A DNA stretch of 64,000 bases. Origin: Methanothrix sp. (GTDB lineage Archaea; Halobacteriota; Methanosarcinia; Methanotrichales; Methanotrichaceae). Made by a program: the position numbers and the translations under genes. Of the stretch, positions 1,226-45,661 are shown piece after piece. The first letter of the stretch is position 1. Each line of letters starts with the position of its first letter. Location of the stretch: assembly GCA_963682135.1 (NCBI GenBank), contig OY821645.1, positions 352,001 to 416,000 on the forward strand, read 5' to 3'. A model generated the notes under the pieces. It worked only from the letters and a program-made list of their open reading frames with translations. It ran no database searches and had not been told where the DNA came from.

Positions 1226-4200
1226 TCAAGGCAGACTGTCGTCACCAGTGTCCATGCACGAGGCACAGGACGGCAAGACCACTGTGTTCCCTGGTTCACC
1301 AGTTCCACAGGTGTAGCAGGGTACCCAGTCATCATCATAGATCAGACCGCTGCAATTAAGCCCGAAGCACGTGGGCGGCTGCCAGTCTGAGGATGTGGAC
1401 GAAGGCAGTGCCCCTCCGACGCCTATATCGACGCGAGACTCAACATCTGCCGCAGCCCCCTCCGGCCCGTCCACTGAGAAGGCTTCGATATGAGCCACAT
1501 TAACATAGACGCCATCCGACTGTGCCTCAGTCCTGTATACGATGGTCCTATTCTCTCCTGGTGCCAGGTCGAGGATGGTCCAGGTTATCAGGTTAGACCT
1601 GTTCTCAGAAGGCTCCTGAGATGAGTTGAGCAGCTTCATGGATGCAGGTAGCTGGTCCATCAAGAAAGCCACCATGGTGTATTTCTCACGGTTTTTGAGA
1701 TTCAGGCTGTACCAGACCACCTTCGCGTCCAGAGCATCGACCCTGGCGGTCTTGCTAGCGGAGATCTGGGGTGGGCAGCAGGTCAGCCAGTTCATGCGGA
1801 CCACGGAGAAGTTCCTGGCCAGCGTCCATCCGTTACCGTAATTGCCTGCCGCCTCCACCCGGTTCACCAGATTGGATGGCTCCTCTGTGATGTTTAGTCG
1901 CAAATCGATGATTGTCTTGCTGCCGATACCCATAACAGGCAGCGACCAGTTGGCATAACTTGTCGTCAGCTCTGCCGGCCGCAGAGATGAGGTGATGTAC
2001 TCGGTTCCCGTCGGGAAGACGTCCTTGACATAGACCGGCCCTAAAGCCCGGTTGCCGTTGTTCTCGATGGTGATCCGATAGTCCGCATAGGAAGTGTTAA
2101 GCTGGTCCACTTTAGCCATCTTGCTCAAAGAAATATGCGGTCGATCGTACTTGGCCACGCCTCCAAGGGAGGTCTTTCTCCGCATATCAAATTCTCCGAC
2201 ATATGTCTCCTCTTGATCTACTTCATCGGTGCTATTCGGAGAATTGTCCCTATAGACTGTGCGGAAATCAGCCTGACCGGTCACCTTAGCCTCTGTTACC
2301 ATCTCGTTTAGGCCTCGGGCGGTTGACTGGAGATCCAGGTTCTCTACTGAGGAAAAGATCTCACTAATCAGGCTGGTGGGGGTCTTGGACCACATGCCTT
2401 CCTTCCACTTTATGTCGCTGGACGTGGAGAAGGTGGGCGTGTAAATGTAGCCGGTCGGCAAGTGAGTGAGGTTGATATCCTTGGCGATATAGTTTACCAC
2501 CGAACTGATCTTCTCCTCACTCTGGTAATTGCCCGTGCCGGACTCGTAAGACGACTGGGCTTTGCCAAGATCTCTGCTTGCAGAAACATAACCCGTGCCG
2601 TTCACGGATTTCTCGTATTCCACATTCTTGCCGTATTCATCAAATTTCTGATTGATTTTAAAGCTGCCCACATAGTCTTCTTGGGACTCGAAGACTTGGC
2701 TCGCGTTCCAGGTTCTATTCTCATCGGCATCTTTTTTGACGAGACCGATATGACCAACGCCTTCGAAGTCGGCTTCGGTCTTCATAGTGCTGCCGTTCTC
2801 GTCCAGCTTCAGTGAGCTGTTCCGGCTGATGCGATTCGCGTGGGTATACTCCTCGTTTGTGGAGCCACCTGTGGCGTAGTTCTTGGATTCGGCTTTCTCC
2901 GACCACTTGCTCTGGAAATCGACATCACGATTATTGGGCAGTGAGAAGGTGGTTGGCTTGTGAGTTACAGTCAGGCCCTTGGTCCACTGAATAGAGCGGT
3001 TGGAGTTCTGGTACTTAATCACATCCTCGCTGGCATATTCGCCGCTGCCGTGCTCCTTGAGGGCGACATATGTCTGAGGCGGGCCGACGTTGACTTCGGT
3101 GGAGGCAGTCATGGGTATATTTCCATTTGAATCCACCATTTTTGCTCGATTTGTAAGGATTAGGGGCTCTGTACGGATATCATTGTGAACATTAACGAAT
3201 CCCTTTCCGATCACGCCTTGATCCATGTCAAAGGAGGTGTTGCCGAGGTCTTGCGCCACCAGAACTAAGATAATGATGGTCCCGGATTCTTGCCCATCTA
3301 TTATCCATTTGTTGTTATTGCCATCATCAACGGGTGTTGGGGACGCGGATACGAAGGAGACTCCTTTCGGGTAGTCATCCACAATCATATGTCCAGAAAT
3401 ACCACACCAGGTAATGTTCCATGTAATGTTATATGTCACATAGTCTCCTGGCTTCACAACCTTAGGTGAGGCTGTCTTCGTAAGGCTGCAACCTATGAGA
3501 ATCTTTACGTTTTCTGTTGCTTTCCCAGTAACCACGTTTCCATCTGGATCCAATGCAGTGGCGATGACTATATTTACCAACTGCGGAGCGTCTCCCGCTT
3601 TCGCGATGTAGTTCATGTAATAGCTGCGTGACTCGCCCGGTTCCAGGGGATCTGGATCGTTGAGCACAATAATGCCCAGCTTGTCATCGTTGAGGGTTAA
3701 GGAGGTGAGAGCTATGGTGCCATTGTTCACCACTGTGTACTTGTATCTTATATTATCGCCAGGTTTAGCTACCTCCCGGTCCGCCTCCTTGAAGACGAGC
3801 AAACGCAGCAATGGTTGAGGGGTCTGGCAGCTCCATCCCAAATCAACACAGGCCCGCTTGCTCACCACCTGTTCATCTATTTCTCCCATTTTCCCATATG
3901 CTGTTGCACAATTCGTGAGGTATTCCGCTACTGCAAATCCTGGAGTTCTTCTATATTCAATGCTGATCATGTTGCCATAGGGGTCAACTATCATGATCAG
4001 GGTGTCTCCTGTGGCATAGTAGCGCACCGTGTAGGTTCTGTAGCCCTTTTCCGGTTTATTGTACTCTATCTTTAGAGTCTCCTTGGTTGGCGAGAATCTA
4101 TAGAACTCCAAGATAACCTCGCCTTTCAAGCCGTAGGTTGTGACAAGGATGTCGTACTTATCCGGCCTGTTGTACTCTGACGATACCAGGAATCCTGTAG

Positions 4201-7200
4201 CATTTAGCTGCTCGTTTAGAGTCTCTCCAGTCGATATATTCGTGTAGTTGTTAAATGTGTAGTTGGCTCCAGCAATGCTCTTTATGCACGATTCTCGAGT
4301 CACGTTGGCCTTATCGAATGCATCTCGATGTTTCTTAATGCTTTTCAGTTTGGCTTCCAGTTTGGTCTTATTTCTGGATAGAGCATCAATTATCTGCACA
4401 ATATTGACAGGGTCGTTTCCTGCCGCCATGACTTTCAGCTTCGTCTCATCAGCAGCTACGATGGGAGGGATGGTAGTTGAGGTCGAAGATGCGCTGCAGG
4501 CATCCGGACTCAATTTAACGCTGTAAGCAATGGTCCAGGAATTTCCTGGTTGCAGAGAGCCGAGAGGGCCCAGATCAAAGATCAGATTGCCGCCGTCAAA
4601 GGTGTGCTGGATTAATGTACTTCCTGAATATGCATAAGGAATAAATTCCAGCATCGGGCTTAGCTCGTCAACGATTTTAATATCATGAATCTCTATTTTT
4701 CCGGTATTCTTCACAGTGATAGTAAAAGTGGTTTGCGTATTTGGATTTAAGATTTCATCTGTAGTAGTCTTCGTGATCTCCAGAGGTGACTTCTGTCCGC
4801 CCGAACCTGTATATTTGTTTCCGAAATCTGCATTGTTCGATGCAACTTCAGTCTGGTCAGACCTGGTTACTGTGATCTGACCGGTTTCTGAAACCACAAT
4901 GCTGTAAATATTGTCCGCCGGGTAGGTCTGGGTCCAGTCTGACGAAAAAGAAGGCACCTCTTCCAGCGTGTAGGTACCTGGCAAGATGCCTGTAAATCTA
5001 TATGATCCAAGAGTTGCGGTTTCAGTAGACGTAGTAGCACTCTTGACTACAGTATCACCTTGCATCAGATTTATCGTCCAACCGCCCAGCAACTCGTTTC
5101 CCTGTTTGGAGCCGTCACCTTCGCTATCGTTAAACTTTACGCCAGATAACGAGACATCTGCCCCTATTACCTGGTTGCCAAAGTTCACCTCTGTCGATGA
5201 GACCACTGTCTGCCCGGTGTCTGACATTCTTACTACTATCTGGCCAGTATTCGATATTTCTACCGTGTAAACCTTGCCTGACGGGGCTGTTTGAATCCAT
5301 CCGAGCCTCTGTTCTTCTTCAACCGTGTAGCTGCCGGGAATGATTCCGGCAAACGCATAGCCTCCGTCTGAACCGGTTGTGGTCGTAGCAATTATTGTAT
5401 CAGCATTTTTCAGATTGATGGTCCAGCCTTCCAATCCCGGTTCATCCGCATCCCTGGCGCCATTGCCATTAAGGTCCTCGAACTTTATGCCGCTAAAACC
5501 AGCAGTACGCACATTGCCAAAATCCAGGTCATTGGGTCCGGCTGCATTTGAGACCAGGGTTACGGTGTGGCTACCAGGTGAAGAAGGATAAGTCTGAGAC
5601 CAGCCTGATTGGGCAACCTCCTCCACAGTGTAAGTGCCGGGAGCGATTCCGGTGAACACATAGACTCCGTCTGGACCGGTTGTTGTCGTGGCGAAAATTA
5701 TACCGCCATTTTTCAGATTGATGGTCCAGCCTTCCAGTCCAGGTTCACCAGCATCCTTGACGCCATTGCCATTGAGGTCCTCGAACTTTATGCCGCCAAA
5801 GCCGGTGGCACGCATATTGCCAAAATCAATGTTCGTAGGTCCGGCGACTCCCGAAACCATGGTTACCGTATGGATGCCAGGCGATGCAGGATAAGTCTGA
5901 GACCAGTCGCTCTGCATTACTTCTTCAACTGTGTAGCTTCCGGGAGCAATTCCTGTAAACTCGTAATTCCCGTCTTGGCCGGTTGTGGCGGTGGCGACTA
6001 CTGTATCGCCACTCTTCAGGTTAACCGTCCAGCCTTCCAGTCCAGGTTCACCAGCATCCTTGACGCCATTGCCGTTGAGGTCCTCGAACTTTATGCCGCC
6101 AAAGCCGGTGGCACGCATATTGCCAAAATCAATGTTCGTAGGTCCGGCGACGCCCGATACCAGGGTTACCGTATGGATGCCAGGCGATGCAGGATAAGTC
6201 TGAGTCCAGCCGCTCTGCACTTCTTCTTCAACGGTGTAGCTTCCTGGAGCAATTCCTGTAAACTCATAAGTCCCGTCTTGGTCGGTTGTAGCGGTGGCGA
6301 CTACTGTATCGCCGCTTTTCAGGTTAACCGTCCAGCCTTCCAGTCCAGGTTCACCAGCATCTTTGACGCCATTGCCGTCCAGATCTTCAAATTTCATCCC
6401 AGATAGACCCGTCTGTCTCCAGTTACCGAAATCAATGTCAGTCGGTCCGGCTACACCCGATACCAGGGTTAGGGTTTGCGCGCCCGGTGAAGCAGGATAG
6501 GACTGAGTCCAGCCGCTCTGTACAGCTTCTTCAACTGTGTAGCTTCCTGGAGCAATTCCTGTAAACTCGTAAGTCCCGTCTTGGCCGGTTGTGGCGGTGG
6601 CGACTACTGTATCTCCACTCTTCAGGTTGACCGTCCAACCTTCTAAGCCCGGCTCGCCCGCATCCCTGGCACCATTGCCGTTGAGGTCCTCGAACTTTAT
6701 GCCGCCAAAGCCGGTGGCACGCATATTGCCAAAATCGATGTTCGTAGGTCCGGCTACACCCGAAACCAGGGTTACCGTATGTATGCCAGGCGATGCAGGA
6801 TAAGTCTGAGTCCAGCCGCTCTGCACTTCTTCTTCAACGGTGTAGCTTCCTGGAGCAATTCCTGTAAACTCATAAGTCCCGTCTTGGTCGGTTGTAGCGG
6901 TGGCGACTACTGTATCGCCGCTTTTCAGGTTGACCGTCCAGCCTTCCAGTCCAGGTTCACCAGCATCTTTGACGCCATTGCCGTCCAGATCTTCAAATTT
7001 CATCCCAGATAGACCAGTCTGTCTCCAGTTACCAAAATCAATGTCAGTCGGTCCGGCTACACCCGATACCAGGGTTAGGGTTTGCGCGCCCGGTGAAGCA
7101 GGATAGGACTGAGTCCAGCCGCTCTGTACAGCTTCTTCAACGGTGTAGCTTCCGGGTGCAATTCCAGTAAACTCATAAGTTCCGTCAGGACCGGTTGTGG

Positions 7201-8080
7201 TGGTGGCGACTACTGTATCGCCGCTCTTCAGGTTGACCGTCCAGCCTTCCAGTCCAGGTTCACCAGCATCCTTGACGCCATTGCCGTTGAGGTCCTCGAA
7301 CTTTATGCCGCCAAAGCCGGTGGCACGCATATTGCCAAAATCAATGTTCGTAGGTCCGGTGACGCCCGAAACCAGGGTTACGGTTTGCGTGCCCGGTGAA
7401 GCAGGATGAGTCTGAGTCCAGCCGCTCTGCACTTCTTCTTCAACGGTGTAGCTTCCTGGAGCAATTCCTGTAAACTCGTAAGTCCCGTCTTGGCCGGTTG
7501 TGGCGGTGGCGAAAATTATGCCGCTATTTTTCAGGTTGATAGTCCAGCCTTCTAAGCCCGGCTCGCCCGCATCCCTGGCACCATTGCCATTAAGGTCCTC
7601 GAACTTTATGCCGCTAAAGCCCAAAAGTGGAAGTACTGTGATCGTAACAAGGCACGTATCTTTGCATCCATCTGGTGCCCCTGTTGGGCCCAGAACAAGA
7701 GTAATATGATAATCAGTGGAAGCTGTAACCTCGGGCGCAACAAAGGTGAATGACCAGGCATCGGTTCCCGAATCTCGCACTATTTCAGGATCGCAGGCCC
7801 AGTCATAGCTGTATCCAGTTCCAGATGGTTCTGCTATTAATGAAACATGCTGTCCACTGTAAGCGGTAAGAGATACGGGACAGGATTGGGGTGCGCTACT
7901 ACCCGTCGGGCACATGAACGATAAGCATAGCAGCACCAGTATCCAGGCTAAGGAGGCTTTGAAGCGAAAAGGATCGTATGAAGTAGCTTTTTGCATCTGT
8001 TGTTGACGTAAATGATCAACCTGCACAAATTTGTCACTCATTTTAACTTCCTTTGGCTTATCCGATAAGTGCCTCGACAT
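1226..8080 (-). CDS. Giant secreted/cell-surface protein: signal peptide, N-terminal Cys-containing Ig-like domain, 9 SdrD-B/CnaB-like repeats, several DUF11-like domains, Cys-rich C-terminus
   Basis: Hydrophobic segment LAWILVLLCLSFMC. Repeats GxKFEDL[ND]GNG..DAGEPGLEGWT.NL. DUF11-like segments (LEITKT..., VFKEADREVAKPGDNIRYKYTVVNNG, LTKTASPKVVKPGDYVTY). True start may be ATG at 8041. Confidence 0.88.
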   Translation of the reverse strand: MSRHLSDKPKEVKMSDKFVQVDHLRQQQMQKATSYDPFRFKASLAWILVLLCLSFMCPTGSSAPQSCPVSLTAYSGQHVSLIAEPSGTGYSYDWACDPEIVRDSGTDAWSFTFVAPEVTASTDYHITLVLGPTGAPDGCKDTCLVTITVLPLLGFSGIKFEDLNGNGARDAGEPGLEGWTINLKNSGIIFATATTGQDGTYEFTGIAPGSYTVEEEVQSGWTQTHPASPGTQTVTLVSGVTGPTNIDFGNMRATGFGGIKFEDLNGNGVKDAGEPGLEGWTVNLKSGDTVVATTTTGPDGTYEFTGIAPGSYTVEEAVQSGWTQSYPASPGAQTLTLVSGVAGPTDIDFGNWRQTGLSGMKFEDLDGNGVKDAGEPGLEGWTVNLKSGDTVVATATTDQDGTYEFTGIAPGSYTVEEEVQSGWTQTYPASPGIHTVTLVSGVAGPTNIDFGNMRATGFGGIKFEDLNGNGARDAGEPGLEGWTVNLKSGDTVVATATTGQDGTYEFTGIAPGSYTVEEAVQSGWTQSYPASPGAQTLTLVSGVAGPTDIDFGNWRQTGLSGMKFEDLDGNGVKDAGEPGLEGWTVNLKSGDTVVATATTDQDGTYEFTGIAPGSYTVEEEVQSGWTQTYPASPGIHTVTLVSGVAGPTNIDFGNMRATGFGGIKFEDLNGNGVKDAGEPGLEGWTVNLKSGDTVVATATTGQDGNYEFTGIAPGSYTVEEVMQSDWSQTYPASPGIHTVTMVSGVAGPTNIDFGNMRATGFGGIKFEDLNGNGVKDAGEPGLEGWTINLKNGGIIFATTTTGPDGVYVFTGIAPGTYTVEEVAQSGWSQTYPSSPGSHTVTLVSNAAGPNDLDFGNVRTAGFSGIKFEDLNGNGARDADEPGLEGWTINLKNADTIIATTTTGSDGGYAFAGIIPGSYTVEEEQRLGWIQTAPSGKVYTVEISNTGQIVVRMSDTGQTVVSSTEVNFGNQVIGADVSLSGVKFNDSEGDGSKQGNELLGGWTINLMQGDTVVKSATTSTETATLGSYRFTGILPGTYTLEEVPSFSSDWTQTYPADNIYSIVVSETGQITVTRSDQTEVASNNADFGNKYTGSGGQKSPLEITKTTTDEILNPNTQTTFTITVKNTGKIEIHDIKIVDELSPMLEFIPYAYSGSTLIQHTFDGGNLIFDLGPLGSLQPGNSWTIAYSVKLSPDACSASSTSTTIPPIVAADETKLKVMAAGNDPVNIVQIIDALSRNKTKLEAKLKSIKKHRDAFDKANVTRESCIKSIAGANYTFNNYTNISTGETLNEQLNATGFLVSSEYNRPDKYDILVTTYGLKGEVILEFYRFSPTKETLKIEYNKPEKGYRTYTVRYYATGDTLIMIVDPYGNMISIEYRRTPGFAVAEYLTNCATAYGKMGEIDEQVVSKRACVDLGWSCQTPQPLLRLLVFKEADREVAKPGDNIRYKYTVVNNGTIALTSLTLNDDKLGIIVLNDPDPLEPGESRSYYMNYIAKAGDAPQLVNIVIATALDPDGNVVTGKATENVKILIGCSLTKTASPKVVKPGDYVTYNITWNITWCGISGHMIVDDYPKGVSFVSASPTPVDDGNNNKWIIDGQESGTIIILVLVAQDLGNTSFDMDQGVIGKGFVNVHNDIRTEPLILTNRAKMVDSNGNIPMTASTEVNVGPPQTYVALKEHGSGEYASEDVIKYQNSNRSIQWTKGLTVTHKPTTFSLPNNRDVDFQSKWSEKAESKNYATGGSTNEEYTHANRISRNSSLKLDENGSTMKTEADFEGVGHIGLVKKDADENRTWNASQVFESQEDYVGSFKINQKFDEYGKNVEYEKSVNGTGYVSASRDLGKAQSSYESGTGNYQSEEKISSVVNYIAKDINLTHLPTGYIYTPTFSTSSDIKWKEGMWSKTPTSLISEIFSSVENLDLQSTARGLNEMVTEAKVTGQADFRTVYRDNSPNSTDEVDQEETYVGEFDMRRKTSLGGVAKYDRPHISLSKMAKVDQLNTSYADYRITIENNGNRALGPVYVKDVFPTGTEYITSSLRPAELTTSYANWSLPVMGIGSKTIIDLRLNITEEPSNLVNRVEAAGNYGNGWTLARNFSVVRMNWLTCCPPQISASKTARVDALDAKVVWYSLNLKNREKYTMVAFLMDQLPASMKLLNSSQEPSENRSNLITWTILDLAPGENRTIVYRTEAQSDGVYVNVAHIEAFSVDGPEGAAADVESRVDIGVGGALPSSTSSDWQPPTCFGLNCSGLIYDDDWVPCYTCGTGEPGNTVVLPSCASCMDTGDDSLP
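5170..7625 (-). repeat. Intragenic tandem array of 303-bp (101-aa) SdrD-B-like repeats: 8 close copies, with one diverged copy just downstream
   Basis: Near-identical DNA blocks recur every 303 bp (e.g. 5985, 6288, 6591, 6894, 7197, 7500). Each carries a D-x-[ND]-G-N-G-x-x-D Ca-binding-like loop. Boundaries approximate. Confidence 0.92.
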
Positions 8081-10928
8081 TTATGGGGGGAATTTCCCAT
8101 ATTACTATCTGCATTTGATCCACGGATTGGTCAGAGCATCCGGTTGCTGTCAATGTGATTGTGACTGAACCTGCAACTTTATCTGCTGCGCTCGGTATGT
8201 AGTAAGCTGTTGTGAGAGATGTGGGGTTTGAAATGGTACCTTCTGTCCCTGATGATGTCCAAAGATAAGTGGCAGCCCCACCAGAATTGGTGCCAATTAG
8301 AGGCACCTTTTCTACATTATCGCAGACGTCCTGATCGGACCCGGCTGATACTATCGGGCTGCCCAGGATCGATACTTGTTTGCTGCATAGAGGAGTGGTG
8401 CATCCTGCTGGCGTGGTTAACGTCACTTTGATGAAAGCTGTGCCTGCTGTGCCTGCCGTCCAGGTGATGCTGTTCGTGTAAGGCGGTGAAGATGTTATCG
8501 TTCCTCCTGTGATCGTCCAGGCATAGGTCGCCCCGGCCCCGGCGTTGGCAACTGAAGCCGTGTTGCTTGTCGATCCCGCGCAGATCGAAGAATCTGCATT
8601 TATGGTGCAGTCCGGTAGAGGATTGATCGTAACCTCCTTGCTGCATTGAGGAACGGTGCATCCAGCCGTCGTGGTCACTGTAACTTTGATGGAAGCTGTG
8701 CCTGCTGAGCCTGCCGTCCAGGTGATGCTGTTCGTGTAAGGCGGTGAAGATGTTATCGTTCCTCCAGTGATCGTCCAGGCATAGGTCGCCCCGGCCCCGG
8801 CGTTGGCAACTGAAGCCGTGTTGCTCGTCGATCCCGCGCAGACCGAAGAATCTGCATTTATGGTGCAGTCCGGCAGAGGATCGATCGTAACCTCCTTGCT
8901 GCATTGAGGAACAGTGCATCCTGCTGGCGTGGTTACCGTCACTTTGATGGAAGCTGTGCCAGCTGTGCCTGCCGTCCAGGTGATGCTGTTCGTGTAAGGC
9001 GGCGAAGATGTTATCGCTCCTCCTATGATCGTCCAGACATAGGTCGCCCCGGCACCGGCGTTCGTGACAGACGCTGTATTTCCAGTTGATCCAGCGCAGA
9101 CGAAACTAGGTGAAGTTATGGTACAGTCCGGCAGAGGATTGATCCTAATCTCATTGCTACAGGCTTTTGAACAATGAGCATCATTTACCGTCACTCTAAT
9201 GAAAGCTGTACCAGTCGAGCCTGCCGTCCAGGTAATGCTGTTCGTATAAGGTGGCGAAGAGGTTATTGTTCCTCCTGTGATCGTCCAGGCATAGGTCGCC
9301 CCGGTTCCTGCGTTCGTGACAGACGCTGTATTTCCCATCGATCCAGCGCAGACGAAACTTGGAGATGTTATGGTGCAGTCCGGCAGAGGATTGATCGTAA
9401 CCTCCTTGCTGCATTGAGGAACAGTGCATCCTGCTGGCGTGGTTACCGCCACTTTGATGGAAGCCGTGCCTGCTGAGCCTGCTGTCCAGGTGATGCTGTT
9501 CGTATAGGGTGACTGAGAGGTTATCGTTCCCCCAGTGATCGTCCAAGCATAGGTCGCCCCGGCCCCGGCGTTGGCAACTGAAGCCGTGTTGCTCGTCGAT
9601 CCCGCGCAGACCGAAGAATCTGCATTTATGGTGCAGTCCGGCAGAGGATCGATCGTAACCTCCTTGCTGCATTGAGGAACAGTGCATCCTGCTGGCGTGG
9701 TTACCGTCACTTTGATGGAAGCTGTGCCAGCTGTGCCTGCCGTCCAGGTGATGCTGTTCGTGTAAGGCGGCGAAGATGTTATCGCTCCTCCTGTGATCGT
9801 CCAGACATAGGTCGCCCCGGCCCCGGCGTTGGCAACTGAAGCCGTGTTGCTCGTCGATCCCGCGCAGACCGAAGAAGCTGCATTTACAGTGCAGTCTGGC
9901 AGAGGATTGATCGTAATCTCCTTGCTGCAGGCTTTTGAACAATGAGCATCATTTACCGTCACTATGATGGAAGCTGTGCCTGCCGAGCCTGCCGTCCAGG
10001 TGATGCTATTCGTATAGGGCGACTGAGAGGTTATCGTTCCTCCCGTGATCGTCCAAGCATAGGTCGCTCCGGTCCCTGCGTTAGGAACTGAAGCCGTATT
10101 GCCCGTTGATCCTGCGCAGACGGAACTGGTTGACGTGATGGTGCAATCCGGCAATGGGTAGACGATTACATCATAAATCCTCTGGGATGAATGGAGCAGA
10201 CTATCTGTAACGATTAGTTTAACTGAATATGTCCCTGCAGATGCATATGTGTGAGTTGGATCTTTTGCAGTGCTTGAGCTGCCGTCTCCAAAAGTCCAGG
10301 CATAGCCATAAGGTGCAACTCCGCCGGTAGTTTTGTCTGTGAAGGAAGTCGAAGTGCCAAGGCAGGCCTTCGTAAAGATAAAATCTGCTATTAGCGGGGG
10401 TGGGACATTGATCGTAGATCCTGAATAATAGCACTTGGCAGGGATATAGTCGGCACATCTGTCATATGCGCATGCTCCTGAATCGGTATTCCAGGCTGCA
10501 TAAATATCCTTTACCTCCAGCGATTGCCCACAGATGTAACTAACTTGAGATATTTGCAGCTCGAAATCGCTGGTGGGCAACTCTCCAATATGATTTTCGA
10601 TCAGTCTCCAGCTTCCATCTAGGTTTTTAACTTGTATTGCGGTATGTGCGCAATGTCTGGCACTGCTCGATGATACGTGGAATTTTGCCCAGAGGGTCGC
10701 AGTTGCTGCAGTTCCTGGTGTACACGTACTGTCTGATGTCAGCCATACATTTGTAATAGCGACATCATTCGCGGTACAACCACTGCAACAATAGGGCCAG
10801 GTTCCGCTGCAAGCCCCGTGAACAAGAGGTATTTGCACGATAGATATTATAAATATAGTAATTATAAAATTCAATTTCATAATAAATCCCTCGTCATACC
10901 AAATTGCCAGGCCTTTGTAAGGTAACAA
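8058..10928 (-). CDS. Secreted protein: Cys-rich N-terminal domain, PKD domain, 7 Cys-containing Ig-like repeats, terminal PKD-like domain
   Basis: Signal peptide MKLNFIITIFIISIVQIPLVHG (likely start 10880). PKD motif FTDKTTGG..YAWTFGDGSSST.KDPTHTY. Seven PLPDCT...VCAGS...TYAWTITGG repeats. Confidence 0.88.
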   Translation of the reverse strand: MLPYKGLAIWYDEGFIMKLNFIITIFIISIVQIPLVHGACSGTWPYCCSGCTANDVAITNVWLTSDSTCTPGTAATATLWAKFHVSSSSARHCAHTAIQVKNLDGSWRLIENHIGELPTSDFELQISQVSYICGQSLEVKDIYAAWNTDSGACAYDRCADYIPAKCYYSGSTINVPPPLIADFIFTKACLGTSTSFTDKTTGGVAPYGYAWTFGDGSSSTAKDPTHTYASAGTYSVKLIVTDSLLHSSQRIYDVIVYPLPDCTITSTSSVCAGSTGNTASVPNAGTGATYAWTITGGTITSQSPYTNSITWTAGSAGTASIIVTVNDAHCSKACSKEITINPLPDCTVNAASSVCAGSTSNTASVANAGAGATYVWTITGGAITSSPPYTNSITWTAGTAGTASIKVTVTTPAGCTVPQCSKEVTIDPLPDCTINADSSVCAGSTSNTASVANAGAGATYAWTITGGTITSQSPYTNSITWTAGSAGTASIKVAVTTPAGCTVPQCSKEVTINPLPDCTITSPSFVCAGSMGNTASVTNAGTGATYAWTITGGTITSSPPYTNSITWTAGSTGTAFIRVTVNDAHCSKACSNEIRINPLPDCTITSPSFVCAGSTGNTASVTNAGAGATYVWTIIGGAITSSPPYTNSITWTAGTAGTASIKVTVTTPAGCTVPQCSKEVTIDPLPDCTINADSSVCAGSTSNTASVANAGAGATYAWTITGGTITSSPPYTNSITWTAGSAGTASIKVTVTTTAGCTVPQCSKEVTINPLPDCTINADSSICAGSTSNTASVANAGAGATYAWTITGGTITSSPPYTNSITWTAGTAGTAFIKVTLTTPAGCTTPLCSKQVSILGSPIVSAGSDQDVCDNVEKVPLIGTNSGGAATYLWTSSGTEGTISNPTSLTTAYYIPSAADKVAGSVTITLTATGCSDQSVDQMQIVIWEIPPINVEALIG
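8370..10160 (-). repeat. Seven tandem ~252-258-bp repeats encoding 4-Cys Ig-like domains
   Basis: Repeated near-identical DNA (gccgtccaggtgatgctgttcgt..., gatcgtccaggcataggtcgccccgg...). Two end variants, DAHCSKAC and PAGCTVPQC. Confidence 0.9.
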
Positions 10929-20411: not shown

Positions 20412-20648
20412 ATGAGTGAAGTTGCGGCAAAATCAAGTTTTCAGGAACTTCTTGAATCTGTAGAATCTCTGCCCCTTGATGACCAGCAGATGCTCCTCGA
20501 TATCATTAACATGCGCATAATCGAGAAAAGACGCGACGAGCTGATGGCGGATATGGAGGAATCTCTTGAGGCTTACAAGAAAGGCGAGGTCCGAATAGGG
20601 ACAGTCGATGATATCTTGAGAGATCTCGATAAGGATCTGATGGATTGA
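20412..20648 (+). CDS. Putative antitoxin of a type II toxin-antitoxin pair
   Basis: Small acidic protein overlapping the downstream RelE-like gene by 4 bp. Confidence 0.75.
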   Translation: MSEVAAKSSFQELLESVESLPLDDQQMLLDIINMRIIEKRRDELMADMEESLEAYKKGEVRIGTVDDILRDLDKDLMD

Positions 20649-20929
20649 AGAAACTCATTTATGGAAAGACATTTCGTCGAGCCATCAAGAGACATATTCA
20701 ACAGAAACCTGACCTTCGGCATAAGGTTGAGAATGTCCTGAGACTTCTTTCAGATAATCCATTCGATCAATCTCTCCATTCTCACAAATTGAAAGGAAAA
20801 TTGGCACCATTATGGGCCTGTACCGTGGATTTTGATTGCAGAATCCTCTTCATGTTCTTGCCTAATCCAGAGACAGGAGAGGAAGCAATTTTGCTTGTTT
20901 CCGTGGGAACTCACAAAGAGGTTTATTAA
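20645..20929 (+). CDS. RelE/YafQ-family mRNA interferase toxin
   Basis: FRRAIKR...PFDQSLHSHKLKGKL...WAC.VDFDCRILF...LLVSVGTHKEVY. Confidence 0.88.
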   Translation: MKKLIYGKTFRRAIKRHIQQKPDLRHKVENVLRLLSDNPFDQSLHSHKLKGKLAPLWACTVDFDCRILFMFLPNPETGEEAILLVSVGTHKEVY

Positions 20930-20937: not shown

Positions 20938-23900
20938 TCACAGCTTGCCAATGCATGGCTGACATTCCCTTCGCTCCCAGGGCAAGATGCTGCTCCGGTT
21001 AAAGCTTCCTTCCTGCGGACAGGTAAGGCAATTCGCATCAGGGTTATCCATGAATCGTCCCCATTCCTCTCTGGTCATATTCCGAGTTACGCGGCTGCAA
21101 GCCTCGTCCATGACTTTGCCGTTATTCAATGTCCATATTTGTGCGGCTTTATCGTCGCAGCCAGTTGCAAGTTTGCTGCCATCTGGGCTGAAGGCCACCG
21201 CATTCACTGAGTCATCATGCTCAAGCCTTTGAAACTCTCTTCCTGTTTGTATATCCCACAATCGAGCCGTTTTATCAGAGCTCCCGGTTGCTAGCCAGCG
21301 TCCGTCTGGGCTAAAGGCTACTGCGTTCACTGAGCCATCATGCTTAAAAATCCTCAGCTCTTTGCCCGTCTCTATATCCAACAATCGAGCTGCTTTATCA
21401 AAGCTCCCGGTTGCCAACCAGCGCCCATCAGGACTGAAGGCAAGTGCTGACATCACATAATCGAATGCCAGACGCTTCATCTTTTTTCCGGTTTGAACGT
21501 CGAAGATTTGAATCACCATGGCAAAGGCCGAGACAATTGTGGCCAGCAGTCTCCCATCAGGGCTGAATGCCATCGCCCACACCGATTCATGATTCTCCAA
21601 TCTCTGCAACTCTTTTCTGGTTTGAACATCCCACAATAGAGTTGTATTGTCAGAGCTGACTGTAGCCAAAATTATTGCATCCAAGCTGAATGCCATCTGC
21701 TCCATCGAGCCATCATACTCTGGACTCCTCAGTTCTGTTCCGTTTTCGATATCCCACAGATGGGCTGCATAATAATGATCGATTTTGGCATCATCAACAC
21801 TGATAGTAGCCAATGTTTTTCCGTTAGGGCTGAAGATTACCGAATGCACTCCATCATTATGCACGAGTCTCAATAAACCTCTATTTTTCGGTACATCCCA
21901 CAATCGAACCATCCTGTCAGTGCTACTAGTTGCAATCCAGCTTCCGTCCGGGCTGAATGTCATTGCTTTTACTTCGCCATGATGCTCAAGACTCTGTAGC
22001 TCTTTGCCTGTCTCGACATCCCACAATCGAGCAGCAATGTTTCCGAAGAGAGAGTGGGACTCTTTGTTGCGGGTGACTAATTTTCTTCCGTCCGGGCTAA
22101 ATTTCACCATATCTACTACACCATGATGCTCAAGACTCTGTAGCTCTTTACCTGTCTCGACATCCCACAATCGAGCCATAGTATCATCGCAGCCAGTAGC
22201 CAGCATTCTTCCGTCCGGGCTAAATTCCACCGCATGCACTGATACATGAAGCTCAAGCCTTTGAAGATTTTTTCCTTTTTGAGCATCCCACAAATAAGCA
22301 CGATCTTTGCAGATAGTTGCCAGTTTGCTTCCATCTGGACTGAATGCTACCATTCTCACCCAAGAATCGTGTTTCAGCCTCTGTATCTCTTTTCCGGTTT
22401 GAACATCCCACAGTAGGGTTGTATTATCATTACTAGCCGTAGCCAGCCTGTTCTTATCCCGGTCAAATGCCATCGCTCTGCCCGAGCCATCATTTTCCAG
22501 CCTTAGCAACTCTTTTCCAGTTTGAACATCCCACAAATGAGCCGTATAATCATTGCTGATCGTGGCTAGTCTGTCACCATCTGGGCTGAATGCCATATAA
22601 TTTAAGCTGCTATCATTACCCAGCCTCTTCAGCTCTTTACCGGTTTGGACGTCGTAAATTCGAACCGCATTATAAAAGCTGCTGCTCGTGGCCAGCGATC
22701 TTCCGTCCGGGCTAAAGGCTATCTTTGAAGCTGACTGAAATCCCTTCTGATTGTCATTACGCTCTATCCTCAGCAGCTCTTTGCCAGTTTGAATGCTCCA
22801 AATTCGAACCGTTCCATTATAATCTACTGTTGACGTGGCCAACAATCTTCCGTCTGGGCTAAATGCTACATTATTAACCCAATCGCTATGCTCCAGTTGA
22901 GCAATGCAAAGAGGAAATAGAGCCAGGCTACGTCTGAGTGCTGTGTTTCCTTCAAGCGTCTCTTTATGCCTCATAGATTCAACTGCCAGAAGAACGCTCT
23001 CTGTCAATGATCCGGCAACGCCTCTCATCTGCTCTGATTGCGCGGCTAGGCTTCTAGCCAGGGCTTCCGCCGTTTTTTCATTTGCCTGCTCTTTCTGATA
23101 TTGAGCAACTACTGCAGCGCACAGGGCAATGGTAGCAATGATAGCCAATACTTTTATGTACCGCCATCTAGTTCTCTCTTTCTCCGCCTTTGCTCTCTCT
23201 TCCTTCTCTCGCTCCCTTTCCCTCAAGCCCAGGCTGGCATTGATGAACTCCTGGTCAGCCTCGCCTAGGTCCTTCTCCCGCTCCTTTTGCCACCGCTCCG
23301 CCTCATCGAGCCGACTGCCCCGCAGCAGCCGGCCTTCGTCTCGACCGGACAGATCGGATGGTGAAGTCTGCTGCCATTCCCGTGCGTCCTTCTCCAGCTC
23401 CCTCTCCCAGGCCAGAAAGCTTCGATCTTTCTTCAGCCAGCGCTGGAGAAGCGCCCACTCCCGGATTAGAGAGTCGTGGATGATCTGTACGGTCTCTTCT
23501 CCATTGTCTAAATAGGTGGTCACGAGCCTGGCATCTGCCAGCCGCTGCACAACCTTTTGCACAGTCTCCCGCTCATTTTCGTCGTTTTCGTCATGCAAAA
23601 AGTCCGCCAGCCTTCTCTGCCTGCGGCTGTCCGGCAGCCTTTGCTTCTCGTCTCCCAGGTTGACCAGATCGGTGAGGATTCGCCTGGCAACTGCTCCGCG
23701 CCCCTCCTTCTCCAGGCTCCGGCAGACCTGATCCGCCCACGATGTTAAGCTGCCCGTCACCTTGCCTATGGTCTGGTAAGCATGGTGAGTGAGCAGGCCC
23801 TGCTCCCGCCTCTCCCAGAGCTGGGTGAGGGCAAACTCCAACAGCGGCAAGACTGTGCTCCTGCCCGCACGCGCGTTGCCCTCGCGGCTGCTCTCCAGGA

Positions 23901-25185
23901 CATCGTTGATGATCACCTCGGTTAGGCCTTCCTCCAGATGCAGGCCAACGCGGCGGGCAGGCTGCTGGATTATCTCACGCAGCTCCTCATACTCCAGGTT
24001 GGAGCCCACCTGGAAGAAGCCGCGCTGGGTCCATGCCAGAACCGCAGGGGGCGCATCATCGGCAAAGCGGCTGAAGAAATCATCCCGCATTACGGCAAGA
24101 ACATAGATCTCAATATCCGAATCAAGTAGATCCTCGAGCTCGGACCAGAAATTGCGGCGAATATCTGATGGACAGGTGACCAGAAACTCCTCAAACTGAT
24201 CCAGTATGACAAGCAGCTTCTCCTGGCCGGGGTTCCTTGATATCCAGCCCCTTGCGGCCTCTGCGAGGCCAGCGAAAGCTCCCCTCAGCCCTGCTCTCTC
24301 CAAGTTATCGAAGGGCCGGTCAGCAGGCTGGGCCAAAATTATTCCCCAGCGATCGCTCCCCGGAACAGAGCCACGTCGAAGCTGCGGGATGAGGCCCGCC
24401 TGCACCACAGAGGATTTGCCGCTTCCTGAAGGGCCCATGACCAGAAGGAAGCGCGGCCTGGCACGCAAGGCCTCCTCCAGCCCCTCCACCAGATGCCTTC
24501 GCCCGAAGAAGAACTCCGCCTCTTTTTCCGTAAAAGGGGAAAGGCCCATGTAAGGCCGCACATTGGAAGGCACAAGCTGCGGATAGATGGATATGAGCGT
24601 CTCGGCGGGTGTGATGAAAGCCGTATCTGCCAGTCTTCCGAATCTGTCGGGCGCAGCGATGGATGTGACCATGCCCACCACCCGGCGTGCCTGCATATCG
24701 AAGATGGGCGCCCCGGAAAAGCCGGGCGTGATCTCGGAGCTCTTCACCTGCAGAACCCTGATTCCAAGAATTGTCGTCTTATCCATCAGCCGGCCTTCTC
24801 CGCAGATGCCCTCTTCCTGACTCTGATCAGGAAAGCCGAATGTCTGAAGATCATGGCCTGCAGCTCCATCGGAGCAGCCGATAGAAAGAGGTACGACCTC
24901 CGGTGGCAGCGGCCCTTCCAGTTGCAGCAGAGTCACATCCTCAGTCTCTGCCGCCCGCCAGGCCTGCGGCAGCAGCCGTGCTGTTCCTCTCTGGCCATTG
25001 ACGCGAAAGATTACCTCTATTTTCTCCGGCTTGGAATAGACTCGCGCCTGCAATTTCTCAGCTTGAATGACATGCGAGCAGGTGGCAATGATCCCCTTTT
25101 CCGACAGGACAAAACCGGTTCCTGTGGTAGTCGTGCCATCTGCGGCCAGTATTCTGACTATCCCTGCCTTGAGGTCAAAGGGCAT
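20938..25185 (-). CDS. Trypsin-like serine protease + nSTAND1-type NTPase + TM helix + 14 WD40 repeats
   Basis: Triad motifs TCSHV, EDVTLL and PGFSGAP. PYMGL..F...EAEFFFGR, Walker A GPSGSGKSS, Walker B LLVILDQFEE, LPLLEFALTQLW, IHDSLIREW. Hydrophobic VLAIIATIALCAAVVA. Fourteen AFSPDG-type repeats. Confidence 0.93.
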   Translation of the reverse strand: MPFDLKAGIVRILAADGTTTTGTGFVLSEKGIIATCSHVIQAEKLQARVYSKPEKIEVIFRVNGQRGTARLLPQAWRAAETEDVTLLQLEGPLPPEVVPLSIGCSDGAAGHDLQTFGFPDQSQEEGICGEGRLMDKTTILGIRVLQVKSSEITPGFSGAPIFDMQARRVVGMVTSIAAPDRFGRLADTAFITPAETLISIYPQLVPSNVRPYMGLSPFTEKEAEFFFGRRHLVEGLEEALRARPRFLLVMGPSGSGKSSVVQAGLIPQLRRGSVPGSDRWGIILAQPADRPFDNLERAGLRGAFAGLAEAARGWISRNPGQEKLLVILDQFEEFLVTCPSDIRRNFWSELEDLLDSDIEIYVLAVMRDDFFSRFADDAPPAVLAWTQRGFFQVGSNLEYEELREIIQQPARRVGLHLEEGLTEVIINDVLESSREGNARAGRSTVLPLLEFALTQLWERREQGLLTHHAYQTIGKVTGSLTSWADQVCRSLEKEGRGAVARRILTDLVNLGDEKQRLPDSRRQRRLADFLHDENDENERETVQKVVQRLADARLVTTYLDNGEETVQIIHDSLIREWALLQRWLKKDRSFLAWERELEKDAREWQQTSPSDLSGRDEGRLLRGSRLDEAERWQKEREKDLGEADQEFINASLGLREREREKEERAKAEKERTRWRYIKVLAIIATIALCAAVVAQYQKEQANEKTAEALARSLAAQSEQMRGVAGSLTESVLLAVESMRHKETLEGNTALRRSLALFPLCIAQLEHSDWVNNVAFSPDGRLLATSTVDYNGTVRIWSIQTGKELLRIERNDNQKGFQSASKIAFSPDGRSLATSSSFYNAVRIYDVQTGKELKRLGNDSSLNYMAFSPDGDRLATISNDYTAHLWDVQTGKELLRLENDGSGRAMAFDRDKNRLATASNDNTTLLWDVQTGKEIQRLKHDSWVRMVAFSPDGSKLATICKDRAYLWDAQKGKNLQRLELHVSVHAVEFSPDGRMLATGCDDTMARLWDVETGKELQSLEHHGVVDMVKFSPDGRKLVTRNKESHSLFGNIAARLWDVETGKELQSLEHHGEVKAMTFSPDGSWIATSSTDRMVRLWDVPKNRGLLRLVHNDGVHSVIFSPNGKTLATISVDDAKIDHYYAAHLWDIENGTELRSPEYDGSMEQMAFSLDAIILATVSSDNTTLLWDVQTRKELQRLENHESVWAMAFSPDGRLLATIVSAFAMVIQIFDVQTGKKMKRLAFDYVMSALAFSPDGRWLATGSFDKAARLLDIETGKELRIFKHDGSVNAVAFSPDGRWLATGSSDKTARLWDIQTGREFQRLEHDDSVNAVAFSPDGSKLATGCDDKAAQIWTLNNGKVMDEACSRVTRNMTREEWGRFMDNPDANCLTCPQEGSFNRSSILPWERRECQPCIGKL

Positions 25186-25192
25186 TTTTCTG

Positions 25193-25522
25193 CTATCCCT
25201 TCTTCTCTCGCACCCATTTCAGATTGATCTTGAAGTTGGCCTCAGCCCCTACTTTGGTAATGATAACCCCAGTATCAGCCTTCAGGGTCAGACCGAACTC
25301 CACCGTCGCCTCCTGCGGAGGATTGCTGATGTTTATGAGCTTGGAGACAATGCTGCTCGCTATGGGGCTGAGGCTGTTTATGGTCGCCTCAAAGGACTGA
25401 GCCGCTTCATCGGGAAGGCTACGTCCGGCTTTGACCAGCCCACCTCTCTCGACATCCGAAACCTCCGTCTCAATAAATACAAAACCGCCAGATTCCAGAG
25501 GATATTTGACAAGATCTCTCAT
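25193..25522 (-). CDS. Trypsin-co-occurring domain protein (Trypco1 / CU044_2847-like)
   Basis: 109 aa with the pattern GGFVFIE...SFEATI...PQEATVEFGLTLKADTGVIITKVGAEANFKINLKW, located 7 bp upstream of the trypsin-STAND gene. Confidence 0.82.
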   Translation of the reverse strand: MRDLVKYPLESGGFVFIETEVSDVERGGLVKAGRSLPDEAAQSFEATINSLSPIASSIVSKLINISNPPQEATVEFGLTLKADTGVIITKVGAEANFKINLKWVREKKG

Positions 25523-25565
25523 GGTTTTAATCTGTGTTTTTATTACAATTAATAATCTTTCTCAA

Positions 25566-28159: not shown

Positions 28160-30346
28160 TTGATCATCATTAGATTGTTCTGGATGGAGTGGGTTATGAG
28201 AATCAATCGGACTATATTGCAATTGGCAGTAATTGCTATCATCTGCCTGTATCCCGTTGCAGCTTCGGATCCGTCATCTTCTGCATCTGATCAGGAATCC
28301 GGCTGGTATGTTTATGAGACCCCCGAAGACTCTTCCCGGCTTGTGGAGAGTGCATCGATAGGCGCTCTACCGGATAAGAGCAGCCTTTTGATAATCGATT
28401 CCCAGGGCCGGCAGTCGCGCACTGCACTGGAGATCCCCTCCGGAACTTGGGCGCAACTTCGGCTGATGCCTCCGGCAAGCGGAGAGATGCAGCTCTTTTG
28501 CCTCTATCCCACCGGTTCAGTTGCCCAAATGCTCAGTGCCACCGTAGAGAAGGGCAAGAGCTACACTGCATGGTATCAGGCCGGCCTGGAAGGCGATTAT
28601 GAGCTGTGGTTTACAGTAGGCGAAGCTACGAGCAATTCCGTAAAATTCCAGGTCATCGAAGCGGAAGTTGCAGATGAAAGCGCTCCCATGGCAGGCGCAA
28701 ATATGGGTGGCGCAGGCATACTCTCAAGAGCCATCGTCAGCGTGCCGGGGATGTCCTACAGCGCGGCCCCTGCGGCTGCCCCTGCGATGGCTGCTGCCCC
28801 CAGTCCCAGTATCGGATTTTCTGCGGGCGGAGCCAAGGACATCAGCAACTTCCGGGAGAATATCTTGCAGGACTATTTACCGCTGCCCAGCGACGTAACA
28901 TACGAGGGCCTGTTTTATGATTATTACTTTGATACGGGAGCGGCAAAGGAATGCAAGAAGCTCTTCTGCCCGTCCTACAGCTATGCCGTCTCTAAAGATC
29001 CATTCTCACTACAATCGCAATACTATCTCTCAGTGGGCCTGAACTCCGGAATGACGGATTTTCAGAGAAAGAAGCTGAACCTGGTAGTGGTGCTGGACTT
29101 CTCCGGCTCCATGGGCAGCCCCTTCGATGAATACTACTACGACAGATTTGGCAACAAGGTAGAGCAGAAAGGCGACGATTCGAGCAAAAGCAAGACCAAG
29201 ATGCAGATTGCCGATGAGTCGGTGGTGGCCCTCCTGGATCATCTTAAGCCGGAAGACCGCTTCGGGATGGTATTATTCAGCGATGATGCCTTCCTGGTCG
29301 ATCCGCTCACCAGTGTTGCCGATAAAAATCCGGATCGCCTGAAGAGCCGCATCCTCAATATCAAGGAGACATACGGGACCAACATGGAGGCGGGAATGAA
29401 AGAGGGAACTGCTCTCTTCGATCGGTTCTTGCAGGCCGACAAATCGGAGTATGAGAACCGTATCATCTTCTTGACCGATGCCATGCCCAATATCGGCGAT
29501 AGCAGCGACCTGGGGCTCTATCGCATGCTGGAGGATAATGCCGATCAGGGAATTTACACCACATTTATCGGCATCGGAGTAGACTTCAACACGGAATTGA
29601 TAGAGAGCATCTCCAAGATCAAGGGGTCCAACTACTACTCTGTACACTCGGCAAGCGAATTTGGGGAGCGCATGAACGATGAGTTCGATTTCATGGTCAC
29701 ACCGCTGGTCTTCGATCTGCGCCTCAAGCTGGATGCGCCGGGCTATGAGATTGAAAAGGTCTACGGCTCTCCTGAAGCGGACCAGGCCACGGGCGAGCTG
29801 ATGAAGGTCAATACCCTCTTCCCCTCCAAGGCCGAGGAAGGCCAGGTTAAAGGCGGAGTGATCCTGGTGAAGCTGAAGAAGCTTTCCAATCAGGGGAACA
29901 TGCGGCTTAGCGTGAGCTATGAGGATCGAAATGGGGTGAAAGATAGCGATGAAGCCGAAGTGAATATGGCAGAGGAAAATGCGGATTTCTACCAGAACAG
30001 CGGTATCCGAAAAGCTGTGCTTCTCTCTCGCTACGCTGATCTGCTCAAGAACTGGCTAATAGATGAGAGAACGGCAGCAGATAATGGCTGGAAGATTGTG
30101 CCGTCTGTGACATTGGCCAATGGAATTGTCATCCCCATTGAGCTAGGAGAGTGGGAACGCCAGTCATTACCTCTTACTGTCTCAGAGCCCTATCCAGATC
30201 TGTTTGGCCGGTTCTCTGATTACTTCCAGAGTGAGTCTCAGATATTGGGCGACAGCACTCTGGAGCAGGAAGAGGCGATACAAAAGAAGCTGGCGGGTTT
30301 TGCCGGACCCACGATGAACGGAAACACAACGCCGAAAGGGGTATAA
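28160..30346 (+). CDS. Secreted von Willebrand factor A (VWA) domain protein
   Basis: Signal peptide (likely start 28196), Ala/Pro-rich linker, MIDAS motif VVLDFSGSM...TNMEAG...FLTDAMPN. Confidence 0.88.
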   Translation: MIIIRLFWMEWVMRINRTILQLAVIAIICLYPVAASDPSSSASDQESGWYVYETPEDSSRLVESASIGALPDKSSLLIIDSQGRQSRTALEIPSGTWAQLRLMPPASGEMQLFCLYPTGSVAQMLSATVEKGKSYTAWYQAGLEGDYELWFTVGEATSNSVKFQVIEAEVADESAPMAGANMGGAGILSRAIVSVPGMSYSAAPAAAPAMAAAPSPSIGFSAGGAKDISNFRENILQDYLPLPSDVTYEGLFYDYYFDTGAAKECKKLFCPSYSYAVSKDPFSLQSQYYLSVGLNSGMTDFQRKKLNLVVVLDFSGSMGSPFDEYYYDRFGNKVEQKGDDSSKSKTKMQIADESVVALLDHLKPEDRFGMVLFSDDAFLVDPLTSVADKNPDRLKSRILNIKETYGTNMEAGMKEGTALFDRFLQADKSEYENRIIFLTDAMPNIGDSSDLGLYRMLEDNADQGIYTTFIGIGVDFNTELIESISKIKGSNYYSVHSASEFGERMNDEFDFMVTPLVFDLRLKLDAPGYEIEKVYGSPEADQATGELMKVNTLFPSKAEEGQVKGGVILVKLKKLSNQGNMRLSVSYEDRNGVKDSDEAEVNMAEENADFYQNSGIRKAVLLSRYADLLKNWLIDERTAADNGWKIVPSVTLANGIVIPIELGEWERQSLPLTVSEPYPDLFGRFSDYFQSESQILGDSTLEQEEAIQKKLAGFAGPTMNGNTTPKGV

Positions 30347-45350: not shown

Positions 45351-45377
45351 GCGGACCCATTCGTTTTTCTTTTTTCT
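45335..45377 (+). terminator. Stop-codon-spanning hairpin plus T-tract after acs copy 1
   Basis: tccgctca-tcacc-tgagcgga followed by tttttctttttt. Confidence 0.65.
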
Positions 45378-45460
45378 ATTAAAGTTGCCGAAATGAATGC
45401 AGAATTCAGTTATTTTGCTTATTAATAATGATAATAATTGAACATTAATTAAAGTTACCT

Positions 45461-45478
45461 CGACAACTTTATAAATGA
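45461..45478 (+). promoter_or_regulatory. Putative BRE/TATA promoter of acs copy 2
   Basis: cgacaactttataaatga, nearly identical to cgataactttataaatga upstream of copy 3. Confidence 0.65.
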
Positions 45479-45661
45479 AAAACCAGGATAATTATCGATC
45501 GCTACAGTATTCCCGATGACTCCCGTAGGCAAGGCATTTCGGTCATGGAATATAAGGGAAAGATCGTGCTGGATGTTTGTCCTCAGGTGATTGGACGGGC
45601 ATTCAGGTGATTTGTGGGGAGTTTGGGGGAAGACGTGGGGATTCAAACGGAGGTTACAAAA

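Follow-up and report, generated by a model that had tools for sequence, protein, structure and literature searches.

The stretch of DNA studied here comprises 64,000 nucleotides from Methanothrix sp. (GenBank assembly GCA_963682135.1, contig OY821645.1, positions 352,001 to 416,000), and this whole stretch is called the window in the following. Its minus strand carries two adjacent genes: a small gene for a protein of 109 amino acids (aa) and, 7 nucleotides (nt) after its end (25186-25192), the ATG of a gene for a protein of 1415 aa. The small protein belongs to the Trypco1 family, while the large one combines a trypsin-like protease domain, an NTPase of the nSTAND1 type, a single transmembrane (TM) helix and fourteen WD40 repeats (Table 1). 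The pair is an intact archaeal member of a class of systems which has been catalogued and, in part, experimentally tested.

The small protein matches the Pfam profile of Trypco1 (PF19493) with 77.6 bits, which is above the gathering cut-off of 24.6, and its residues 8-104 align with positions 2-97 of the model, so that 96 of 98 model positions are covered. The NCBIfam family CU044_2847 (NF041216) is matched as well (66 bits against 23). As is typical for Trypco1, it is a small stand-alone protein (109 aa) encoded beside a trypsin-like peptidase gene, at a distance of 7 nt. Trypco1 is present as a single copy in the genome (76.9 bits in a genome-wide scan of one 3.04-Mb contig), and the Trypco2 profile (PF19631) finds no match in this genome. 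In total the Trypco1 family comprises 1426 cluster representatives (E<=0.001; clusters at 50% identity).

The N-terminus of the large protein matches Trypsin_2 (PF13365; residues 22-172, 61.2 bits, cut-off 27.6). His38, Asp83 and Ser157 are invariant in an alignment of 14 sequences and line up with the corresponding motifs of the chloroplast proteases Deg8 and Deg1, which we take to be those of the catalytic triad. Residues 211-608 match nSTAND1 (PF20703) with 331.9 bits (cut-off 27.1), a domain named in Kaur et al. 2021. It contains a Walker A (GPSGSGKS, 251-258) and a Walker B motif (LVILDQ, 325-330), and the columns G251-S259 and D329-E332 are invariant in the 14-sequence alignment. The NTPase is not a NACHT domain, which reached 11.5 bits with a cut-off of 26.7, and NB-ARC is not among the Pfam matches. 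In a PADLOC scan no Avs model was among the seven families matched, which comprised protease-domain and repeat matches only.

Both open reading frames (ORFs), which are on the minus strand, are found where the original prediction had placed them from the letters alone, with the small gene 7 nt upstream of the large one. The intact triad, the Walker motifs, the one TM helix and the fourteen repeats, which it had also reported, are borne out by Pfam, alignment, hydrophobicity and a repeat table, and the names Trypco1 and nSTAND1 by the profile scores given above, which exceed the curated cut-offs too clearly to be a matter of chance. Its reading of the protein as similar to a NOD-like receptor (NLR; NOD, nucleotide-binding oligomerisation domain) was right in the calls of effector, nSTAND1 NTPase and WD40 domains. 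The archaeal host which it had assumed agrees with the closest named homologues, which come from a Methanotrichaceae archaeon (81% identity) and from a Methanothrix sp. (cluster of P0017; 73%).

Table 1. Features of the Trypco1/protease-STAND gene pair (positions in the window; residues of the 1415-aa protein).
Feature	Position	Strand	Basis
Trypsin-nSTAND1-TM-WD40 gene, 1415 aa	20938..25185	-	ORF list, translation, Pfam
Cys-rich C-terminal tail, 62 residues (1354-1415), 6 Cys	20941..21126	-	sequence
14 WD40 repeats, fast-evolving predicted sensor, residues 761-1353	21127..22905	-	repeat table, Pfam
Juxtamembrane linker, residues 697-760	22906..23097	-	sequence, homologue identity
Single transmembrane helix, residues 676-696, predicted N-in/C-out	23098..23160	-	Kyte-Doolittle, homologues
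Charged Glu/Lys/Arg-rich linker before membrane helix, residues 609-675	23161..23361	-	sequence
nSTAND1 NTPase, residues 211-608, Walker A 251-258, Walker B 325-332	23362..24555	-	PF20703, motifs
Trypsin_2 serine protease domain, residues 1-210, triad His38/Asp83/Ser157	24556..25185	-	PF13365, alignment
Trypco1 gene, 109 aa, predicted protease substrate and effector (ORF list coordinates)	25193..25522	-	PF19493, NF041216, AlphaFold2 model
AT-rich spacer, 43 nt, phosphorylase stop to Trypco1 start	25523..25565	-	sequence read directly

The C-terminal half matches the WD40 profile PF00400 with 300 bits, and Pfam models of propellers match too. Fourteen WD40-like units of 38-48 aa each can be delimited, which probably form two seven-bladed propellers. 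In homologues with 80-87% identity in protease and NTPase, the WD40 region is only 38-58% identical, a difference that misregister of the repeats may exaggerate. Among the five closest full-length homologues the juxtamembrane linker is 59-86% identical, and the Cys-rich tail 56-79% in four and 22% in the fifth.

The helix at 676-696 is the sole strongly hydrophobic segment of the protein (Kyte-Doolittle mean of 2.4 over 19 residues), and the 15 residues preceding it include seven Lys/Arg. Out of 120 homologues with a length of 800 aa or more, 83 have a comparable TM segment, and all 83 have an excess of Lys/Arg on its N-terminal side, which predicts the N-terminus to be inside and the propellers outside. 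As judged from sequence, protease and nSTAND1 NTPase are most likely cytoplasmic and the fourteen repeats most likely located outside the cell. The other 37 homologues lack a segment above the threshold. Because some of these bear WD40 repeats (P0065, P0068 and P0076), WD40 sensing works without a membrane span in relatives, and a species of the same genus even encodes a Trypsin-NB-ARC-APAF1_C-WD40 protein together with Trypco1 (L121). The hydrophobic segment could accordingly be just a tether or a re-entrant element, with the repeats in the cytoplasm and intracellular sensing as in Apaf-1 or Avs proteins. We regard this as very improbable, because a single 21-residue segment with a hydrophobicity of 2.4 cannot bring the chain back to the same side and because the N-side Lys/Arg excess is found without exception (83/83). 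Moreover, the ATP-dependent and protease parts would need to be in the cytoplasm, where they have access to ATP and to Trypco1, a protein that lacks a signal peptide.

To see how common such pairs are in bacteria, a pattern scan of species genomes was used, from which the best 80 loci of at least 600 stretches were considered. Among the matches listed, the trypsin domain lies within the match in 25 loci, and the upstream ORF encodes Trypco1 in 15 of the 19 loci tested (20 ORFs); at the other four the chosen upstream ORF had no Trypco1 match. The partner proteins of Streptomycetaceae have the nSTAND1-WD40 layout and 1380-1418 aa, and 17 out of 18 actinobacterial homologues contain a TM helix at the equivalent position with an Arg-rich N-terminal flank. 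Among actinobacteria, precisely this architecture is therefore nothing unusual. Streptomycetaceae pairs such as L039 and L053 (Kitasatospora/Streptomyces) agree with the Methanothrix pair in gene order, in the four modules, in length, in placement and flank of the TM helix and in having Trypco1 immediately upstream. They differ in their bacterial host, in a sequence identity of only 34-38% over the first 700 residues and in belonging to a separate, deeper clade of the tree described below. No experimental test of these Trypco1 pairs was found in the literature searched.

Trypco1 is also not confined to one archaeal genome, as it occurs in 23 of 401 sampled genomes of the phylum (our genome included), representing nine of 121 genera, and, in a smaller draw, in eight of 24 other species of the genus. 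Of the archaeal Trypco1 loci, 22 out of 30 have an adjoining protease gene, while at eight no neighbouring protease was found by the ORF criteria used. The neighbour is a Trypsin_2 protein in eleven loci, either alone or, in the majority, fused to nSTAND1, NB-ARC (with TPR or APAF1_C-WD40) or NACHT (with HEAT). Six loci have a Lon_C-like protein, four a SIR2_2-CHAT protein and one a papain-like protein instead.

Some of these loci deserve a closer description. L121 (G022, same genus) contains Trypco1 followed by the Trypsin_2-NB-ARC-APAF1_C-WD40 protein mentioned above, which has 1205 aa and represents an Apaf-1-like version of the module. At four loci of archaea of the same class (L126, L128, L129, L131) the gene downstream of Trypco1 encodes a SIR2_2-CHAT (caspase-like) protein of about 510 aa, and L129 additionally has, just upstream, a gene for an nSTAND1-WD40 protein that lacks a protease domain. 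Six further loci of this class (L137, L138, L140, L141, L142, L145) carry a divergent Trypco1 (33-46 bits with a local hidden Markov model) adjoining a Lon_C-like protease of about 312 aa. This arrangement is conserved, no STAND partner was detected in the ORF scan, and four of these loci have, upstream on the same strand, either a gene for cysteinyl-tRNA synthetase or an ORF of the same size.

Trypco1 and Trypco2 were defined by Kaur et al. 2020 (PMC7159879) as families which adjoin trypsin-like peptidases in conflict systems and exclude each other, and archaeal occurrences are mentioned there. Architectures similar to those of NLRs have been reported from Methanosarcinales by Dyrka et al. 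2020, as has a Bell-domain protein from M. soehngenii. Together with the 23 genomes of the phylum, these cases show that it was an overstatement to call an archaeal instance uncharacterised. In their preprint, Evans et al. 2025 (10.1101/2025.11.14.688446) call both Trypco1 and Trypco2 'Pepco' and describe SsPepco, a pre-formed 9-10-mer beta-barrel. A trypsin-like protease fused to Avs4 cuts it after Ile97, a tail of about 2 kDa is lost, and the cleaved protein kills E. coli as a beta-barrel pore. The tested Pepco acts in anti-phage defence, and the authors name transmembrane STAND ATPases among the Pepco-linked sensors. The original prediction had also called the mechanism uncharacterised, which no longer holds for the class but does hold for Trypco1 itself, because the protein tested looks Trypco2-like by eye. 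Its idea that the protease cleaves a death effector agrees with the Pepco results. The external sensing by the propellers which it put forward is a prediction, and the sacrifice of one cell of the filament a conjecture.

The Methanothrix pair falls within the broad Pepco-protease definition of Evans et al. 2025, being a Trypco-family gene which adjoins a sensor-fused protease. As in the SsPepco and trypsin-Avs4 module of Streptomyces subrutilus, the small gene directly precedes that of a STAND protein whose N-terminus is a trypsin-like protease. However, the NTPase is nSTAND1 instead of Avs4, and an apparently external pair of WD40 propellers replaces the cytoplasmic portal-binding domain. The small proteins differ too: the Trypco1 studied here has another order of secondary structures and no 20-residue tail, while SsPepco has a conserved Ile and a charged, Pro-rich tail of about 2 kDa. 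The MoxR-vWA (VMAP) ternary systems described by Kaur et al. 2020 (PMC7159879) likewise couple Trypco1 to a trypsin-like peptidase, but here the linked vWA-MoxR core is absent, and a STAND NTPase on the same polypeptide as the protease takes the part of the switch. No MoxR gene is present among the scanned neighbours. A VWA gene is located 2.6 kb away (28160-30346), and a functional link to it was rejected because it is retained in relatives without the pair.

Apaf-1 and other NLR-type STAND proteins, among them those which Dyrka et al. 2020 report from Methanosarcinales, resemble the large protein in their tripartite layout, with an effector at the N-terminus, a STAND NTPase in the centre and WD40 repeats at the C-terminus. 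They differ from it in that here the NTPase is of the nSTAND1 type, a membrane helix lies between NOD and sensor, and the putative effector is a protease for a separately encoded partner. Ligand-driven oligomerisation is established for this class of STAND proteins and is the logic to be expected for the large protein.

An AlphaFold2 model of Trypco1 (predicted local distance difference test, pLDDT, 79.3) has strands at 2-8 and 14-20, helices within 44-63 and strands at 71-81, 85-89 and 97-104, which amounts to a hairpin at the N-terminus followed by two helices and then three strands. Hydrophobic and polar residues alternate in the strands 71-81 and 97-104, which we count in favour of the conflict module proposed below. 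Prediction of a four-copy complex gave a median of 0.35, compared with a mark of 0.42, and is neutral as to self-association. The near-invariant Trp103 is followed by six residues (family median 7, range 0-22). A moderately conserved basic motif is found in a low-confidence loop at residues 28-34 and is a possible candidate for a cleavage site. The model predicted from the Trypco2 alignment is poor (pLDDT 50.8) and gave no fold comparison with Trypco1.

We consider it rather probable that the pair is a two-gene conflict module of Trypco1 ('Pepco') and a protease-STAND protein, used in defence or programmed death, chromosomal in Methanothrix and of bacterial origin, with most likely a single entry. 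The fast divergence of the WD40 region, the recurrent TM helix with Lys/Arg on its N side and the patchy, decaying distribution described below fit a sensor module of the immune type. The large protein would be anchored in the membrane by its one helix, and binding of a cue by the WD40 propellers would cause NTP-dependent oligomerisation of the STAND module, which would bring the protease domains together and so activate them. The activated protease may then cut the co-encoded Trypco1, and the processed Trypco1 may damage the membrane, by which the cell would be stopped or killed, so that a virus or another invader could spread less far along the filament. Tentatively, and with considerable doubt, we propose further that Trypco1 could be a death effector with a fold unrelated to the Trypco2 barrel, activated by an internal cut instead of the loss of a tail and controlled by an outward double WD40 propeller and a STAND switch. 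If this were true, the archaeon would notice threats, for example an adsorbing virus or a foreign cell, at its surface before entry, by a receptor-type NLR with the membrane between sensor and NOD.

Several points weigh against the conflict module. SsPepco (Table S1) is, as judged by eye only, Trypco2-like and not a Trypco1: it shares A9, R14, L17, A20, F31 and E43, so that of the first seven columns that are invariant in the Trypco2 alignment it agrees, in the same numbering, with all but one. A comparison of the Trypco1 profile (122 sequences) with the Trypco2 profile (35) by hhalign gave a probability of 0.15% and an E-value of 0.4. In addition, Trypco1 does not have a long disposable C-terminal tail, and there is no Pro-rich tail in our protein, so the C-terminal clipping of SsPepco is not simply transferable. 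Without detectable homology to Trypco2 and without the tail, cleavage of Trypco1, its cleavage site and its lethal mechanism are what we infer. The Trypco1 model found nothing in the PDB at E<=0.001 with Foldseek, its best hits with VIA-align (wide) were pseudopilins at a Z of 3.6, and none of the PADLOC (2023) models matches Trypco1. The resemblance to pseudopilins reflects a common helix-plus-sheet arrangement, and the model matches no solved fold. As to the sensor, its predicted position outside the cell has the positive-inside rule as its one basis, and no tested precedent for an outward sensor, a membrane and a NOD in this layout was found in the literature. Finally, trigger, virus and phenotype are without evidence here.

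Within the genus, a homologue of residues 1-700 is present in 12 of 59 species genomes (our genome included) with 38-84% identity, and two genomes harbour two paralogues each. Broken copies also occur, one with six in-frame stops and others split or interrupted. The pair is part of the gene order Lhr helicase, YafQ-type toxin-antitoxin, pair, glucan phosphorylase and VWA gene. This synteny is found in four species, since it recurs, as far as the contigs cover it, in G436, G437 and G016 with 68-81% nucleotide identity. In G463 all that lies between the toxin-antitoxin genes and the phosphorylase is a 76-bp remnant from the 5' end of the large gene (87% identical), which means that the pair was deleted there. 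In G448 and G450 the entire stretch from Lhr to VWA is missing, including pair and toxin-antitoxin genes. The locus is therefore variable, with vertical inheritance within a subclade on the one hand and losses on the other. A recent transfer into this genome was rejected, because the synteny extends over four species at the nucleotide identity given and because the G+C content of the locus (0.49-0.55) is similar to that of the whole window. The decaying, patchy distribution fits what is typical of defence genes.

The same killing module could also respond to a trigger other than a virus. The outward propellers would then recognise neighbours, non-kin or envelope damage, and the outcome would be allorecognition or developmental death, for example breaking or pruning of filaments. 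Methanothrix has a filamentous habit. This is supported by an abstract on Methanothrix sheaths and by the supplement of Kaur et al. 2020 (PMC7159879), where Methanosaeta concilii GP6 is flagged as multicellular; the same paper ties conflict systems to the multicellular habit, and Dyrka et al. 2020 draw a parallel with fungal NLR allorecognition. The sensor is predicted to be extracellular, and WD40 diversification suits the recognition of self and non-self no less than the sensing of viruses. However, a gene with homologues in only 12 of 59 species and with clean deletions is unlikely to have a core role in development, and the one tested relative of the class, as described in the preprint of Evans et al. 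2025 (10.1101/2025.11.14.688446), is anti-phage. We therefore think a non-viral trigger unlikely.

Other homologues raise the question of whether the module has to kill at all. In the close homologues P0052, P0090, P0104, P0111 and P0119, the WD40 repeats are replaced by GAF, histidine kinase, HD-GYP or SpoIIE-type phosphatase domains (according to precomputed Pfam accessions and source names), so this chassis can be wired to ordinary signalling. A receptor protease could in the same way turn Trypco1 into a signalling or regulatory product by regulated proteolysis, comparable to anti-sigma-type cascades, and Trypco1 indeed has neither a hydrophobic helix nor a known toxic fold. Nevertheless this is improbable in our view. 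Trypco1 recurs beside proteases fused to NACHT, NB-ARC and SIR2-CHAT, which are death and immune switches, its distribution is patchy and includes both pseudogenes and deletions, the sensor evolves fast, and the experiment available for the class in the same preprint resulted in killing.

The bacterial origin assumed for the conflict module was studied with a midpoint-rooted tree of the N-terminal halves of 72 trypsin-nSTAND1 proteins (quick search of IQ-TREE under LG+G4, 722 columns), from which the partial loci L037, L056 and L074 were left out and which includes 39 unlabelled metagenome rows hand-picked from 120 listed. All eight labelled Methanothrix rows, paralogues included, fall into one clade together with eight unlabelled rows, with a support of 100 in the Shimodaira-Hasegawa-like approximate likelihood ratio test. 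This clade is nested in a radiation labelled as Chloroflexota (Anaerolineae, Dictyobacter), while Streptomycetaceae branch deeper. The transfer from bacteria, put forward for a phylogenetic check by the original prediction, is in line with this nesting among bacterial rows. A single transfer from a bacterium to an archaeon, followed by duplication, is the simplest reading; it is provisional because of the root and the unlabelled sister rows. The 39 unlabelled rows, the midpoint root and the quick search speak against giving the tree too much weight.

One Anaerolineales genome has fourteen matches with up to 52% identity, many of them close together on a single contig. Matches at E<=1e-40 are found in 36 of 201 genomes of its class. 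In an Anaerolineales metagenome-assembled genome (G464; L172, L180), several trypsin-nSTAND1 paralogues, several of them with in-frame stops, are located within about 40 kb of contig 9 (about 259-297 kb). This suggests an expanding and decaying array.

The lineage probably entered Methanothrix from bacteria, most likely once, underwent duplication, remained at one locus in a subclade and was lost repeatedly. The history of the module is thereby documented from one probable bacterial entry, with Chloroflexota as nearest labelled kin, over duplication and sensor diversification to repeated loss. With the pair, a protease-STAND death module which is complete and, by its sequence, apparently functional is placed in a methanogen which drives acetate conversion in anaerobic digesters. 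Of the two halves of 'Pepco', Trypco1 is the larger one and the more widespread, and the lack of detectable homology sets it apart from the tested Trypco2. The membrane-spanning STAND variants imply signalling across the membrane, and both points mark gaps in the published picture.

Upstream of the pair, the 43-nt spacer possibly contains its own promoter with the TATA-like sequence ttattaat. The glucan phosphorylase beyond the spacer is found without the pair in G463, for which reason a functional link was rejected. On the other side of the pair (20412-20929, plus strand) a 78-aa ORF overlaps by 4 nt a 94-aa ORF for a YafQ-type toxin (PF15738, 33.4 bits), and the two are probably a type II toxin-antitoxin pair. 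They are convergent with the large gene and end 8 nt from its stop. A functional link was rejected here too, because of the convergent orientation and because they are also present in G463.

Elsewhere in the window (43359-49991, plus strand) there are three tandem paralogous genes for AMP-forming acetyl-CoA synthetases of 663, 677 and 663 aa, an arrangement typical of Methanothrix. Two giant predicted surface proteins are encoded next to each other at 1226-10928 on the minus strand, one of 2284 aa with eight SdrD_B-type repeats, DUF11 and DUF7507, and the other of 956 aa with PKD repeats.

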